NCBI GenBank assembly: GCA_903873715.1
Contig: CAIQPS010000029.1
Location: 3,210 to 67,209 of the forward strand
Length of the DNA: 64,000 nucleotides
Reading direction: 5' to 3'
From: an uncultured Actinomycetes bacterium
GTDB lineage: Bacteria > Actinomycetota > Thermoleophilia > RBG-16-64-13
Shown: positions 1 through 6,443 of the stretch, piece after piece
Position numbering within the stretch: the stretch's first letter is position 1
How the letters are laid out: each line of letters begins with the position of its first letter
Position numbers and translations under genes: made by a program
Notes under the pieces: model-generated
The model's input: the letters and a program-made list of their open reading frames with translations, nothing else
Database searches by the model: none
Told to the model about the DNA's origin: nothing

Positions 1-522
1 GTGGCGCAGAACCGGGCGATGGATCGCTCCTTCAAGGTCATCCAGGACGTCGCCGACGAGTTTGCGGAGATCACCGGCCGCCACTACGGCCTTCTCGAGC
101 CCTACCGCTTGGACGACGCTGAGATCGCCATCGTGGTCATCGGTTCCACGGCCGGCACGACGCGCATGGTCGTGGACAAGTTGCGCGCCCGGGGCGTCAA
201 GGCGGGCATGGTGCGGGTCCGGGTGTTCCGGCCCTTCCCGCACGAGGCCTACGCCAAGGCCCTGGAGCACGTGAAGGTGGTGGGCGTCATGGACCGCGCG
301 GATTCGTTCGGGGCTCAGGGCGGACCGCTCTTCCTCGAGATCCGCGCCGCCCTGTACGACAGCGATCCCCGGCCACAGGTTCTGCCCTTCGTGTACGGGC
401 TGGGCGGCCGCGACATCTTCCCCGACAACATCGAGCAGGCGTTCGCCGTCCTCGAAGAGACGGCCCGGAGCGGCAAGCGGGCGACGTCCGAGCGCCGCTA
501 CCTCAACCTGCGCAAAGACTGA
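1..522 (+). CDS. porA: 2-oxoacid (pyruvate-type):ferredoxin oxidoreductase alpha subunit, C-terminal 173 aa; 5' end lies outside the window
   Basis: ORF runs off the left edge. The translation (..IAIVVIGSTAGTT..VYGLGGRDI..) resembles the C-terminal transketolase-C-like domain of PorA/VorA-type subunits. A ferredoxin/NuoE-like gene follows 23 nt downstream on the same strand. Confidence 0.7.
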   Translation: MAQNRAMDRSFKVIQDVADEFAEITGRHYGLLEPYRLDDAEIAIVVIGSTAGTTRMVVDKLRARGVKAGMVRVRVFRPFPHEAYAKALEHVKVVGVMDRADSFGAQGGPLFLEIRAALYDSDPRPQVLPFVYGLGGRDIFPDNIEQAFAVLEETARSGKRATSERRYLNLRKD

Positions 523-544
523 CACGAAGACTGAAGGTATCGAC

Positions 545-3321: not shown

Positions 3322-6300
3322 GCGCGCCCAAACAGAAGGCCGCAGCTGCGGCTGCGCCGGCGGCGGCCGTGTCCGTCAACATCAACGGCAAGTGGTTCGA
3401 CGCGCAGAAGGGCGAGACCGTCCTCGACGTCGCCCGCCGGGAAGGCATCGACATCCCGGCCCTGTGCAGCCTGGAAGGCACGGCTGCCTGGGGTGGCTGC
3501 CGCCTCTGCCTCGTCGAGGTCGACGGGGTGGACAAACTGCAGGCCGCCTGCACCACCTGGGCCGCCGAGGGGCTCACCGTCCAGACCGAGACCCCGCGGG
3601 TCCGCGCCCGCCGCGAGAGCTACCTGCGGATGTACCTGTCCGACCACAACTCCTACTGCGAAGCCCCGTGCACGCACGCCTGCCCGACGCACGTGGACAT
3701 CCCGGCCTACATGGCCGCCCTGGCGGAAGGCGACGCGCCCGGCGCGGCGGCCATCGTCCGCGACGAACTGCCCTTCCCGGGCATCCTGGCCCGGGTGTGC
3801 CCCCGCTACTGCGAGCCTGTCTGCCGCCGGGGCGCGGTCGACGAGCCCATCGCCATCTGCGACCTGCACCGGGCGGCGGCCGATCACTCCACCGCCCGCC
3901 TCAACCGGGGCATGTCCACCGGCAAGCGGGTAGCCGTCGTCGGCGCCGGCCCGGCGGGTCTCGCCGCGGCCTGGTTCCTCACGGCGCGCGGCCACCAGGT
4001 GACCGTCTACGACTCCGAGGCGCAGCCCGGCGGATCGCTCCGCTATCTGGTGCCCGAGTTCCGGTTGCCGGCCTCCGTGCTCGACGCCGATCTGGCTCCT
4101 CTGTGGCAGGCCGGCGCCCGCTTCGTGGGAGGCTCGCAGATGCACTACGACACCGACCCGCAGGTGCTGTTCGAGGCCGGCTTCGATGCGGTCGTGATAG
4201 GCACCGGCTCGAAGGCCAAGACCGCCAAGAAGCCTGCGGCGAAGCACACGCTCGACGCATATGAGTTCCTGCGCGGCCGGCGCGACGGCAGCGGCAAGCC
4301 GCTCTCCGGCAAGGTGGTCGTCGTGGGTGGCGGCATCAGCGCCGTCGACGCAGCCAGGACCGCTCTGCGCTCGGGCGCCGAAGCGGTGACCGTCGTGTCC
4401 CGCTACGAGGCGGACGCCATGCCCGCCGGTGCCCGCGATGTCGCTGCCGCCCGGGAAGAGGGCGTCTCCTTCGAGTTCGGCGCGTCCGCCGACCGGGTGG
4501 CCGCCGCCTCCGCGGCGCCTGCGGCCGGCAAGGCGACCGTCATCATCGCCGCCGAGAACGGCGTCGGGACTTCCGGGACCATCAAGGTAGCCGGCGAGAA
4601 CGTCACCCCCAACCGCTTCACCGGCCGCACCGCATACACCGGCCTCTTCGTGGCAGGCGACGCGCTCGGCGGCGCCAAGTCGGCCATCCACGCGGTGGCG
4701 AGCGGCAAACGGGCGGCATTGGCAGTCGACGCCTGGCTCCGTGGCGAGGACCTTGCCACCCTCGAGCAGATGCTGGCCGATCACGCGAGGCTGCCCTATC
4801 TCGAGCAGCTCAAACAGGATGAGGCGCTCGGCGCGACCGCGAAGCGGCTGGCCGAGCGCGACCCGGTGTGGCTCGCCATGGGGGCCGGCGCCGAGCCGAA
4901 GGCTCGCGCCGCGATGCCCAGATTGTCCAAAGCCAAACGGCTGTCCGGCCCCAACATGGAGGTCGAGCAGGGCTACTCCCTGGCCGCGGCCGAGGCCGAG
5001 GCCAAGCGCTGCCTGCGGTGCACCTGCCCCAGCCTGGGCGAGTGCGACCTTCAGCGCCTCGGCGTGGAGTACGGCGTGACCAGCAACGCCCTCGTCAAGA
5101 AGGGCAGCCGGGTCCGCGTGGTCCAGCCCCAGACGGAACACCCGTTCATCCGCCGCGACATGGAGCGCTGCATAGCCTGCGGCCGCTGCGTGCGGATCTG
5201 CCGCGACGTGGCCGGTCCGGCCTGCTACGACTTCACCGGGCGAGGCTTCACCATCAACGTCGACACGCCGTATGGAGAAGCCCTCCAGTTGGCCGACTGC
5301 ATCAGTTGCGGCCGCTGCGTGACCTCGTGCCCCACCGGCGCCCTGCTCTTCAACGAGCGCCGGCTCGACTCGTTCAAAGTGGACGAGAGCCGCTGCATCA
5401 TGTGCCGCGAGTGCGTCAACGTCTGCCCGGTCGACGGACTCGAAGAGACCGACACGTTCGAGCGCGCCCGGCAGGATTGGCTGCAGTTGATCGCCAAGGG
5501 CAGCGGCTTGGCAGGCGGGCACCGCATGTGCGCCGGCTGTGGCGCGCCGATCGTCGTGCGCCAGGTCCTCATGGGCACGAGCGACCCCGTCGTGGTGGCG
5601 GCGGCCACGGGCTGCCTCGAGGTGAGCACCACCATCTACCCGTACACCTCGTGGAAGAACAGCTTCATCCACACGGCTTTCGAGAACTCGGCAGCCACAC
5701 TCTCCGGCGTGGAGACGGCGTTCCGGGCCCTGAAGAAGCAGGGCAAGATCGATGAGAACGTGAAGTTCATCGCCTTCGGAGGCGACGGCGGGACCTACGA
5801 CATCGGGTTGCAGTCGCTGTCGGGCGCCATGGAGCGCGGGCACAAGATGCTGTACGTCTGCTACGACAACGGCGCCTACATGAACACCGGCTTCCAGAGA
5901 TCCGGTTCGACGCCCATCGGCGCATGGACCACGACGACCCCGATCGGCCACGAGTCGCACGGGAAGTCCCAGTTCCGCAAGAACCTCACCGAACTCATGA
6001 TCGCCCACGGCATCCGCTACGTGGCCCAGGCGTCCCCGCACGATCCCCGGGACCTGGTGCGCAAGGCGGCGAAGGCGCTGTCCATCGACGGTCCGACCTT
6101 CCTCAACGTCATCGCCCCCTGTCCGCGCGGCTGGCGGGCCGACGGCGCGGAGAGCGTCGACCTGGCCAGGGAGGCGGTCAACACGTGCTACTGGCCCCTG
6201 TTCGAGTACGAGGACGGCGTCTACCGCCTCACCTTCCGCCCGCACCACAAACTTCCGCTCGCCCCTTGGCTCAGGCGCCAGGGCCGCTTCGCACACCTGT

Positions 6301-6443
6301 TCCAGCCCGAGAACGCGGCGACGCTCGAGGTGCTCGAGGGCAAGGTCGACCAGGCCTGGGAAAGGCTGCTCAAGAAGTGCGGCGAACCCAGCGAAGCCGA
6401 GTGGCAGGCCCATCTTCAGGAGAATGGCTGTCTGCTACGATAG
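3318..6443 (+). CDS. 1041-aa multidomain fusion: NuoG-type N-terminal 2Fe-2S ferredoxin + GltD/NfnB-like NAD(P)H:FAD oxidoreductase (two Rossmann folds, Cys clusters) + polyferredoxin (3 CxxCxxCxxxC motifs) + PFOR beta subunit (TPP-binding, PorB)
   Basis: GTG at 3318 preceded by GGAAGGAGG with a 5-nt spacer, overlapping the previous stop (GTGA). Domains recognised: CSLEG..CRLCLV; YCEAPCTHACP / CPRYCEPVCRRG; VAVVGAGPAGLAAA and VVVVGGGISAVDAA; CIACGRCVRIC, CISCGRCVTSCP, CIMCRECVNVCP; GHRMCAGCGAP and GDGGTYDIG...NGAYMNTGFQ (TPP motif). The frame is open from 3318 to 6443. Confidence 0.8.
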   Translation: MSAPKQKAAAAAAPAAAVSVNINGKWFDAQKGETVLDVARREGIDIPALCSLEGTAAWGGCRLCLVEVDGVDKLQAACTTWAAEGLTVQTETPRVRARRESYLRMYLSDHNSYCEAPCTHACPTHVDIPAYMAALAEGDAPGAAAIVRDELPFPGILARVCPRYCEPVCRRGAVDEPIAICDLHRAAADHSTARLNRGMSTGKRVAVVGAGPAGLAAAWFLTARGHQVTVYDSEAQPGGSLRYLVPEFRLPASVLDADLAPLWQAGARFVGGSQMHYDTDPQVLFEAGFDAVVIGTGSKAKTAKKPAAKHTLDAYEFLRGRRDGSGKPLSGKVVVVGGGISAVDAARTALRSGAEAVTVVSRYEADAMPAGARDVAAAREEGVSFEFGASADRVAAASAAPAAGKATVIIAAENGVGTSGTIKVAGENVTPNRFTGRTAYTGLFVAGDALGGAKSAIHAVASGKRAALAVDAWLRGEDLATLEQMLADHARLPYLEQLKQDEALGATAKRLAERDPVWLAMGAGAEPKARAAMPRLSKAKRLSGPNMEVEQGYSLAAAEAEAKRCLRCTCPSLGECDLQRLGVEYGVTSNALVKKGSRVRVVQPQTEHPFIRRDMERCIACGRCVRICRDVAGPACYDFTGRGFTINVDTPYGEALQLADCISCGRCVTSCPTGALLFNERRLDSFKVDESRCIMCRECVNVCPVDGLEETDTFERARQDWLQLIAKGSGLAGGHRMCAGCGAPIVVRQVLMGTSDPVVVAAATGCLEVSTTIYPYTSWKNSFIHTAFENSAATLSGVETAFRALKKQGKIDENVKFIAFGGDGGTYDIGLQSLSGAMERGHKMLYVCYDNGAYMNTGFQRSGSTPIGAWTTTTPIGHESHGKSQFRKNLTELMIAHGIRYVAQASPHDPRDLVRKAAKALSIDGPTFLNVIAPCPRGWRADGAESVDLAREAVNTCYWPLFEYEDGVYRLTFRPHHKLPLAPWLRRQGRFAHLFQPENAATLEVLEGKVDQAWERLLKKCGEPSEAEWQAHLQENGCLLR

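Follow-up and report, generated by a model that had tools for sequence, protein, structure and literature searches.

Fusion of PorB with the BfuA of an Nfn/Stn-type Bfu module in uncultured soil Actinomycetota: a new form of the predicted Por-Bfu

In the three-subunit Nfn-Bfu/Stn enzymes, electrons from NADPH enter at an NfnL-like flavin adenine dinucleotide (FAD) and pass through the clusters A7-A6-A3-A2-A1 to the [B1-FMN-C1] flavobicluster of BfuBC, at which NAD+ is reduced by the flavin mononucleotide (FMN) and ferredoxin via C1 and B3/B4; this flavobicluster, not the FAD, is the bifurcation site (PMC10482914, PMC11829005, PMC12018979). A side branch, A2-A4-A5, is a dead end in Nfn/Stn that leads to a catalytically dead C-terminal FdhF-like domain, which is regarded as a remnant (PMC10482914, PMC11829005, PMC12018979); in real formate dehydrogenases, such as FdsABG, it is a working wire to FMN (PMC11829005). 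HydABC also bifurcates at [B1-FMN-C1] (PMC11829005, PMC10482914, PMC12018979), and neither HydABC nor Fdh-Bfu has a GltD subunit. The attachment of a pyruvate:ferredoxin oxidoreductase (POR, also PFOR) to such a core was predicted by Schut et al. (2022) as Por-Bfu, an uncharacterized enzyme of unfused subunits with pyruvate as the third substrate, and these authors asked whether the genes for POR, carbon monoxide dehydrogenase, and similar enzymes beside bfuABC represent one enzyme or two neighbors (PMC9304861). We herein describe a locus in which the thiamine pyrophosphate (TPP) subunit of a 2-oxoacid:ferredoxin oxidoreductase (OFOR) and a Bfu A subunit form a single polypeptide. It was found at the beginning of a 64,000-nucleotide stretch of DNA from an uncultured Actinomycetes bacterium (contig CAIQPS010000029.1, positions 3,210 to 67,209), the whole of which is referred to below as the window.

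Positions 1-6443 of the window (G+C content approximately 69%) hold four co-directional reading frames. These are the last four of the six genes in the operon porG-porD-porA-bfuC-bfuB-(bfuA::porB) and make up its 3' two-thirds. The genes porG, porD, and the 5' end of porA lie upstream of the window; they were read in relatives only and are presumably present in the window genome as well. The canonical order porG-porD-porA-porB is kept, except that porA is followed by three inserted bfu frames, the last of which is fused to porB in a frame of 1041 aa at 3318-6443. The fusion and the conserved operon tie the bfu genes and POR into one enzyme rather than neighboring enzymes, and the middle genes are thus not ordinary NuoEF subunits beside an unrelated OFOR, an outcome that an earlier note on this DNA had named as fatal to its proposal. 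We consider it on balance probable that the products form one complex, a four-subunit-type POR whose TPP subunit shares one polypeptide with the BfuA of an Nfn/Stn-type Bfu module, and that this complex bifurcates. The wiring of POR to a bifurcating NuoEF-type core is not a new idea, having already been predicted as Por-Bfu (PMC9304861).

The possibility that the fusion is an artefact, produced from separate gltD-like, fdx, and porB genes by a frameshift or a faulty assembly, or that two independent enzymes share an operon, deserves next to no weight. Frameshifts are indeed present in many related MFD long-read metagenome-assembled genome (MAG) loci; the closest relative (L023, 84% identity) is full of them and was replaced by L002, L019, L081, and L082 in comparisons. 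However, an identical protein is encoded by an uninterrupted 1041-aa frame on a second, independent contig (L001; 4.9 kb, beginning within bfuB), and a search of 5.8 billion proteins yielded at least 108 full-length homologues (950-1100 aa, 60-81% identity, identical Pfam set) from NCBI, ENA, JGI, and Logan assemblies, annotated in their sources as no more than "FAD-dependent oxidoreductase", "PFOR beta subunit", or "formate dehydrogenase major subunit". The 31 Fe-S cysteines of the fusion are all approximately 100% conserved, with at least 99% for the A1 ligands C50, C61, C64, and C78, and the junction region (aa 700-740) is conserved and contains invariant residues. Together with approximately 25 loci in which the fusion was found with its neighbors, the second contig and the homologues rule out a sequencing error as the source of the continuous frame, and the frame is genuine. 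The fused family was reduced to one full-length representative at 50% clustering of 1.84 billion representatives, which indicates that it is a narrow clade.

The core of the module was compared with proteins of known structure. Full-length PDB matches to BfuB (7t2r_B, 5e-232; also 8a6t_B, 7q4v_B, 9n5u_B, 9bov_B, and 8oh5_B; E-values of 1e-191 to 5e-232, with 9bov_B and 8oh5_B at approximately 1e-210) are only subunits of proven bifurcating enzymes, whereas non-bifurcating FdsB/NuoF reach approximately 1e-123 and lack both terminal domains. By Pfam, BfuB consists of an N-terminal 2Fe-2S_thioredx domain, Complex1_51K (9e-43), SLBB, NADH_4Fe-4S (1.5e-32), and two C-terminal Fer4 domains. Its residues were checked in an alignment to A. 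mobile BfuB against the criteria of Schut et al. (PMC9304861). The B1 site is present (ESCGKCVPC...LCALGG) and the FMN/NAD(H) site is kept. At aa 575-620, a pair of CxxCxxCxxxC motifs, in an alignment to 7t2r_B that extends to residue 594, corresponds to B3/B4, the C-terminal 2x[4Fe-4S] domain on the ferredoxin side, which has no counterpart in non-bifurcating NuoF/FdsB/HoxF (PMC9304861). The equivalents of A. mobile C438, H525, C531, and C536 at the B2 site (2Fe-2S or Zn) are conserved, C465 of the window protein being the first Cys; the position of A. mobile C476 is Ser in the window protein and Thr in approximately two-thirds of the family. The Cys residues of B5 in the N-terminal thioredoxin-like domain are also present (CAGTAC...GCHGFC).

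The core of BfuC matched NfnC (9bov_C, 2.7e-43) and StnA (8oh5_A, 3.4e-43) best, the PDB alignment to NfnC beginning at aa 127, and an alignment of 16 orthologues revealed that the four C1 cluster Cys are invariant. BfuB and BfuC therefore carry all the sequence hallmarks of a ferredoxin-reducing bifurcating BfuBC core. The 126-aa N-terminal extension of BfuC has no counterpart in NfnC, StnA, or HydC, and its motif CxxCxxCxxxCP...YCP is invariant in the same alignment. In PDB and NCBIfam searches, the extension showed only a half-motif similarity to NuoI-like half-ferredoxins and polyferredoxins. A relic of PorD was considered and rejected, the match being limited to a motif of 20 residues (E-value of 5e-4) among generic half-motifs; a homologous extension in a nuo-type NuoE (locus L083, described below) argues instead for a NuoI-related origin.

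These features bear on a reading in which the complex is a non-bifurcating pyruvate:NAD(P)+ oxidoreductase, similar to FdsABG or PadEFGHI, with electrons running downhill via the A clusters to FMN (NAD+) and/or FAD (NAD(P)+) and with B3/B4 idle or serving as an overflow. In its favor, the potentials listed in Table 1 of PMC9304861 make coupling thermodynamically unnecessary, FdsABG uses the A2-A4-A5 branch to pass electrons to FMN (PMC11829005), and NAD+-reducing OFORs are known; the NCBIfam models PadE, PadF, PadG, and PadI match the Por parts at 1e-18 to 1e-91, below their cut-offs. Nevertheless, BfuB has all of the features that separate bifurcating cores from NuoF/FdsB/HoxF (the B2-site His, B3/B4, and B5), all of the PDB chains that it matches best come from bifurcating enzymes, far ahead of FdsB, and the characterized Wor-Bfu, which also has a low-potential donor, needs both acceptors (PMC9304861). 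We regard the downhill route as rather unlikely.

Regarding the POR side, the last 315 residues of the fusion matched the beta subunit of M. acetivorans PFOR (9bt4_C) at 2e-77 with 43% identity and a fold TMt of 0.83. The TPP motif GGDGG...YDN and the [4Fe-4S] Cys C738, C741, C766, and C935 are invariant. The best NCBIfam models for the Por parts were PorA, PorB, PorC, and PorD, followed by VOR models, and the cut-offs of TIGR02175 and TIGR02179 ("pyruvate/2-ketoisovalerate family") were passed. The POR part is of the four-subunit 2-oxoacid oxidoreductase type, and its substrate is most probably pyruvate.

The remainder of the fusion is collinear with the A subunits of Nfn and Stn over aa 17-705 (PDB sequence search; 9bov_A, 9e-114; 8oh5_C, 8e-106; 9n5u_A, 1.4e-99), and fold matches of an AlphaFold2 (AF2) model (mean pLDDT of 74.9, confident at residues 17-600) ranked 9bov_A, 8oh5_C, and 9n5u_A before 9bt4_C. 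The NuoE/NuoF/GltD-like trio is consequently homologous to Stn/NfnABC, as the earlier note had proposed, with E-values of 9e-114 (9bov_A) and 8e-106 (8oh5_C) for BfuA, approximately 3e-43 for BfuC, and approximately 1e-210 for BfuB; the claim that this trio is the subunit set of bifurcating hydrogenases and formate dehydrogenases as well is correct for Stn only, HydABC and Fdh-Bfu having no GltD subunit. In the NuoG/HydA-like region, the ligands are C565/568/570/576, H608, C618/621/624/628, and C636, followed by a NuoI-like dicluster (C661-C671 and C693-C703), with all Cys 100% conserved; NCBIfam searches of aa 481-725 yielded FeFe_hydrog_A6 (2e-29), and the dicluster before PorB matched NuoI (1.6e-16). 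The homology to NfnA/StnC stops near aa 705, and PorB occupies the place of their catalytically dead FdhF-like domain, which suggests, as the simplest reading, that the A2-A4-A5 branch has been re-activated with PorB as its new catalytic head.

From the observed fusion, gene order, homology, and cofactor motifs, we infer an electron wire, coupling, direction, and substrate. Pyruvate and coenzyme A (CoA) would be decarboxylated at the TPP of PorB, and electrons would leave via the [4Fe-4S] cluster of PorB (and PorD), the NuoI-like dicluster, and the A-cluster chain to A1 and [B1-FMN-C1]. The extra clusters, those of the BfuC extension and the NuoI-like dicluster, may bridge POR to the core. At the flavobicluster, the electrons would be split between NAD+, by hydride transfer at FMN, and ferredoxin, via C1 to B3/B4. 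The predicted overall reaction, 2 pyruvate + 2 CoA + NAD+ + 2 Fd(ox) <-> 2 acetyl-CoA + 2 CO2 + NADH + 2 Fd(red), in which Fd is ferredoxin, is that proposed by Schut et al. for Por-Bfu and parallels that of Wor-Bfu.

The GltD-like domain of the fusion requires separate consideration. It is kept in all 108 members, with the FAD motif GAGPAGL in 94 and the A6/A7 Cys invariant. On the other hand, the NAD(P)H subdomain (aa 326-432) is the least conserved segment of the protein, with a mean pairwise identity of 0.35 versus 0.56-0.83 elsewhere. Its beta-meander (identity of 0.21) varies from approximately 20 to 70 residues across the family and is truncated in approximately half of the members, including the window protein (approximately 40 aa versus 65-70). 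The GxGxxA motif is broken in 23 of the 108 and intact in the window protein as GGGISA. The YRR motif after beta-2, a 2'-phosphate motif for NADPH in Rossmann folds, is found in NfnA/StnC/NfnB and lost here: 58 of the 108 have no basic residue and 49 have one, the window protein reading SRY. Cluster A7, beside the FAD, also appears to be ligated differently from that in NfnA/StnC, since the position of the Lys ligand is His184 (98% conserved) and an invariant Cys181 stands where Csac and S. ovata NfnA/StnC have Ala (window 3858-3869). That Lys (Csac K170) is needed for the bifurcating activity of Stn (PMC11829005). The AF2 pLDDT in this module is mostly high and dips to approximately 63-78 over aa ~391-420. 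A relationship of the GltD part to PadH was considered and dropped, no Pad model being among the best 25 NCBIfam matches. Two paralogous copies of the fusion that appear to share one genome (P0072 and P0077, one of which is the locus L007) both lack the GD motif of the FAD domain (FEVRGRDSGS and FAVRGNSSS) and the second Gly of GxGxxA.

The erosion of the NAD(P)H subdomain renders NADP(H) coupling doubtful rather than established. Considering its sequence, the domain may use NADH, bind nucleotide weakly, or be partly vestigial, and in the preferred reading the FAD is a side branch and not the bifurcation site; it may serve as an additional entry for NAD(P)H or be an inheritance that has become vestigial in part.

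The earlier note had placed the FAD at the center: the GltD-like FAD would bifurcate or confurcate and POR would replace free ferredoxin, giving pyruvate + CoA + NADH + 2 NADP+ -> acetyl-CoA + CO2 + NAD+ + 2 NADPH, or the reverse as an NADPH-driven pyruvate synthase. The covalent attachment of POR to the subunit that carries the FAD domain, the conserved FAD motif and A6/A7 Cys, the intact GxGxxA of the window protein, and the reversibility of Nfn/Stn, in which Stn reduces NADP+ with Fd(red) and NADH (PMC10482914), are all in keeping with such a scheme. However, its premise is true of NfnAB/NfnSL and not of solved Stn/NfnABC or HydABC, in which the site is [B1-FMN-C1] in BfuBC. Furthermore, POR is joined on the mid-potential BfuA arm and not at the low-potential exit of C1/B3/B4. 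The state of the NAD(P)H subdomain, with its low identity, its beta-meander shortened in approximately half of the members, its broken GxGxxA in 23 of the 108, and the loss of YRR, also speaks against it, as does the His in place of the A7 Lys. Its claim of ferredoxin independence, with the delta ferredoxin replaced, is not supported, since porD and porG are upstream in every complete relative and BfuB keeps B3/B4 on the ferredoxin side. We consider this scheme quite improbable. A wider version was also entertained, in which the complex is a four-port redox hub with POR in place of soluble ferredoxin: pyruvate + CoA + NADH + 2 NAD(P)+ -> acetyl-CoA + CO2 + NAD+ + 2 NAD(P)H would proceed at the GltD-like FAD, the reverse would drive pyruvate synthesis from pyridine nucleotides alone, and the BfuC extension and NuoI-like dicluster would be a private wire between POR and the core. 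This speculative version also seems decidedly unlikely.

The complex might also operate in the opposite direction, as a pyruvate synthase that reductively carboxylates acetyl-CoA with electrons that the Bfu core confurcates from NADH and Fd(red) (or NAD(P)H). Under anoxia, it would support gluconeogenesis or the assimilation of C2 units. This is the very role that Schut et al. proposed for the Por-Bfu of Dehalococcoides and syntrophs (PMC9304861), Bfu enzymes and OFORs are reversible, and the NCBIfam label of the best-matching models is "pyruvate synthase". Direction is not readable from sequence; nevertheless, the confurcation of NADH and Fd(red) would yield electrons of approximately -400 mV, uphill to the -500 mV pyruvate couple unless substrate ratios are extreme, and no carbon-fixation genes were seen among the window genes scanned to 41 kb, the neighbors being housekeeping or heme genes. 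We regard this synthase role as unlikely. Taken together, the evidence weighs against the downhill, FAD-centered, and reverse readings, and favors a POR-fed complex that bifurcates at BfuBC.

Several points nevertheless weigh against that preferred interpretation. Since pyruvate (approximately -500 mV) is able to reduce NAD+ and ferredoxin without bifurcation, tight coupling is assumed by analogy and is not strictly required. The Por equivalog scores are lower than the NCBI cut-offs (PorB, 354/405; PorA, 479/550; others, 196/270 and 90/120), and porG, porD, and the start of porA are known from relatives only. The AF2 model, on which the route from PorB/PorD to the A chain would be traced, is unreliable at residues 601-715 (pLDDT below 50). 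In addition, the GltD-like domain is kept in 108 of 108 members and in a nuo-type relative, so that its role could be real and more central than that of a side branch.

The features of the locus are listed in Table 1.

Table 1. Features of the fused Por-Bfu locus in the window
Feature	Position	Strand	Basis or remark
porA 3' end (OFOR alpha, domain II)	1..522	+	Pfam PFOR_II 2.6e-32; gene start upstream of window
Intergenic spacer, 22 nt	523..544	+	Carries GAAGG, Shine-Dalgarno-like; porA/bfuC junction without overlap
bfuC N-terminal extension, aa 1-126	545..922	+	Invariant CxxCxxCxxxCP...YCP; candidate extra [4Fe-4S] site
bfuC core, NuoE/HydC/NfnC-like thioredoxin-fold [2Fe-2S] (C1)	923..1414	+	2Fe-2S_thioredx 7e-43
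bfuB, bifurcating-type NuoF/HydB/NfnB homologue, 636 aa	1411..3321	+	Pfam and full-length PDB matches
Fusion aa 1-100, BfuA N-terminal [2Fe-2S] (A1)	3318..3617	+	Fer2_4 5.5e-17
Fusion aa 101-480, NfnL/GltD-like module (A6/A7 [4Fe-4S], FAD site, NAD(P)H subdomain)	3618..4757	+	Fer4_20, Pyr_redox_2
Fusion aa 481-725, linker, NuoG/HydA-like Fe-S region, and NuoI-like dicluster	4758..5492	+	Fer4_Nqo3, Fer4
Fusion aa 726-1041, PorB (OFOR beta)	5493..6443	+	TPP_enzyme_C 1.9e-19; NCBIfam PorB 6.8e-106

The coordinates of the four frames in the earlier note were correct, and Pfam assigned every domain that it expected; in the fusion, these are Fer2_4 (residues 16-92), Fer4_20 (114-192), Pyr_redox_2 (204-463), Fer4_Nqo3 and Fer4 (609-706), and TPP_enzyme_C (764-931). 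The bfuC frame (545-1414, 289 aa) starts with GTG at 545. The proposed translational coupling of all four genes through ATGA/GTGA overlaps applies to two of the three junctions, which overlap by 4 nt (ATGA at 1411 for bfuC/bfuB and GTGA at 3318 for bfuB/fusion), and not to that of porA and bfuC, where the spacer separates the stop of PorA (522) from the GTG (545). A GGAAGGAGG site precedes the GTG start of the fusion at 3318.

A gene for an S-adenosylmethionine (SAM)-dependent methyltransferase (Methyltransf_11/25/31; window 6449-7072, + strand) with a His-rich N-terminus (MPNDTERHDHHHHHEH...) begins 5 nt past the stop of the fusion. A homologous gene lies 3' of the fusion in L001, L080, and L081, and follows a GNAT gene in L019. 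It may be co-transcribed with the fusion operon. Further downstream (13531-23922, + strand), a heme biosynthesis cluster encodes ferrochelatase, HemA, HemD, HemB, HemE, a HemY-type oxidase, and a HemL-like aminotransferase, which indicates that the organism also makes heme and is consistent with a facultative rather than a strictly fermentative lifestyle. No ferredoxin, hydrogenase, or carbon-fixation genes were found among the window genes scanned to 41 kb, all of which are for housekeeping or heme biosynthesis.

The operon was surveyed in relatives by scanning one genome per species and then by tblastn across 79 loci. The order porG-porD-porA-bfuC-bfuB-fusion is invariant in approximately 25 loci, all from Actinomycetota MAGs (Thermoleophilia, Gaiellales, and "Actinomycetes") from Danish soils, the Stordalen bog and palsa, and permafrost. 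The genes 5' of bfu in L002 are porG (206 aa, POR 1e-38), porD (108 aa, with two CxxCxxCxxxCP motifs), and porA (400 aa), and L082, from assembly GCA_040769125.1, has a clean six-gene operon with stops and starts overlapping by 4 nt; the complete PorA (400 aa) of these two loci contains POR_N and PFOR_II. The search for porG and the PorA N-terminus upstream that the earlier note had suggested was thus successful in relatives (L002 and L082), and for the window genome it is an extrapolation from these. Since porD and porG lie directly upstream in every complete relative (L002, L081, and L082 among them), the absence of a delta subunit was ruled out. In ordinary porGDAB operons of other phyla, PorB is approximately 60-64% identical to that of the window.

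Two neighboring gene groups were noted in this survey. Upstream of porG in L081 and divergent from it (2214-4634, - strand) are genes for thiamine pyrophosphokinase, an NMT1/ThiY-type substrate-binding protein, and an ABC transporter, which could provide a local supply of the TPP cofactor. In L082, 5 kb downstream of the operon (18357-23186), a gene for a GltD/HdrA-like protein of 1478 aa, in which Fer4_20 and two regions of Pyr_redox_2 were recognized, is followed by a FlpD/MvhD-like gene; these are candidates for another flavin-based electron-transfer system.

A clue to the origin of the inserted module was provided by P0124 (816 aa), a NuoG-type protein with a GltD/NfnL-like FAD domain and a terminal NuoI-like dicluster. 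Outside the fused family, no protein is closer to the BfuA part (41% identity up to aa 717). It is encoded in the operon nuoA-B-C-D-H-[NuoE-like]-[NuoF-like]-[P0124]-nuoJ-K-L-M-N, which has no separate nuoI (L083 1466-12432 and L084 8-9582; JGI metagenomes 3300035696 / 3300033755). The NuoF-like protein is 72% identical to the window BfuB, and the NuoE-like protein is 49% identical to BfuC and also has an N-terminal extension with the Cys motif. By its gene content, this operon is a putative Nuo-Bfu variant of complex I with a flavin side port; we found no description of a Nuo-Bfu-type operon with a GltD-bearing NuoG in the searchable literature. The module in the window appears to share ancestry with the N-module of this GltD-bearing, complex-I-like operon. 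In the nuo operon, the module comes after nuoABCDH and before nuoJKLMN, with the dicluster as its last part, whereas in the window PorB follows the dicluster and porGDA are the partners; PorB looks to stand where a GltD-bearing Bfu-type complex I continues to the Q-module.

Other arrangements of related parts were also encountered. A Caldilineae MAG (L035 986-2500) has a 504-aa BfuA::PorB fusion without a GltD-like domain directly 3' of its BfuB gene, in which APCPRGW with the fourth PorB cluster Cys is replaced by SSRNRGW. In Nitrospirae JdFR-85 (L047 2861-11020), an unfused Por-Bfu-type cluster consists of bfuC, bfuB, a second BfuB-like frame, and bfuA, with porG-porD-porA-porB approximately 1.5 kb later. 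Thermoleophilia MAGs (L027-L034; e.g., L031 9770-11869) encode a protein of 699 aa in which a Fer4 dicluster at the N-terminus is followed by a PorB-type TPP domain (approximately 68% identical to the window PorB) and a C-terminal part of approximately 300 aa without a Pfam match; NifS-like and NifU-like genes lie upstream, with a 444-aa ORF without a Pfam match in between, and porA and porG were not detected within 10 kb of the gene.

At the genomic level, the occurrence of the TPP subunit and BfuA as a single polypeptide in at least 108 homologues answers for POR the question of whether such genes represent one enzyme. It also suggests that the Bfu family gains substrates by swapping a catalytic domain onto the A2-A4-A5 branch, the dead end of Nfn/Stn, while the NfnL-bearing N-module in a complex-I-like operon points to a shared ancestry of both contexts. 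The hosts are abundant uncultured Actinomycetota of soil and peat (Thermoleophilia, Gaiellales, and relatives), in which the enzyme could shape the balance of NADH, ferredoxin, and perhaps NAD(P)H in anoxic phases. With its six genes, the operon is compact enough for initial biochemistry and cryo-EM on the question of why a -500 mV donor would be coupled to bifurcation. The earlier note did not recognize the architecture as a described enzyme, and in the searchable literature, which does not reach most subscription journals, we also found no description of it, that is, of the PorB fusion, the NfnL-bearing form, the occurrence in Actinomycetota, or the kinship with a nuo-type operon.

Among known systems, PNO of Euglena and Cryptosporidium is a PFOR fused to a domain of the cytochrome P450 reductase (CPR) type. 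The window complex resembles PNO and PadEFGHI (NADH-dependent phenylglyoxylate dehydrogenase, NCBIfam NF045762-66) in the functional idea of linking a 2-oxoacid oxidoreductase to pyridine nucleotide through an attached flavoprotein, and differs from both in its NuoE/NuoF-type core, which they lack, and from Pad in that the Pad models were matched below cut-offs only. As the earlier note had already stated, it is not a CPR-type PNO, and the Pfam scan of the window proteins returned no flavodoxin, FAD_binding_1, or NAD_binding_1 domain, i.e., no CPR, flavodoxin, or ferredoxin-NADP+ reductase (FNR) type of flavoprotein. In contrast to NfnAB/NfnSL, the operon has no small FNR-like NfnA/S gene or domain, and NfnL chains match the GltD-like part only, at approximately 1e-39. 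The canonical PorABGD (M. acetivorans PFOR, 9BT4) shares the order porG-porD-porA-porB around the insertion and the invariant TPP and cluster motifs; however, the window PorB is preceded by approximately 725 aa of flavin and Fe-S domains in one polypeptide, and three bfu frames interrupt the operon.

The closest described relatives are the Nfn-Bfu/Stn enzymes (C. saccharolyticus NfnABC, 9BOV/9BP5; S. ovata StnABC, 8OH5; T. sibiricus NfnABC, 9N5U), with which the window complex shares the three-subunit set, the domain order, and, in the A subunit, an NfnL/GltD-like FAD domain flanked by the 2Fe-2S N-terminal domain on one side and the NuoG-like clusters on the other. Unlike these enzymes, it has a complete PorB in place of the inactive FdhF-like domain, which mediates tetramerization in Nfn/Stn, and is encoded together with porG, porD, and porA; its BfuC has the 126-aa Cys-motif extension, and the fusion has lost YRR, has a truncated beta-meander, has His for the A7 Lys, and has gained the invariant Cys181. 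With the predicted Por-Bfu of Dehalococcoides mccartyi and syntrophic Proteobacteria, it shares BfuABC and the four POR subunits in one gene cluster (PMC9304861). The published form, however, consists of seven separate subunits with a Type-2 BfuA (A1, A2, and A4 only), no NfnL, and a BfuB in clade 45, and Actinomycetota are not mentioned as a host phylum (PMC9304861), whereas the window BfuA is of the Nfn type with extra clusters and is fused to PorB, the bfu genes lie between porA and porB, and the closest BfuB in the PDB is that of A. mobile NiFe-BfuB. While Por-Bfu itself is a published prediction, unfused and from Chloroflexi and Proteobacteria (PMC9304861), the fused, NfnL-bearing Por-Bfu of Actinomycetota is a new form.

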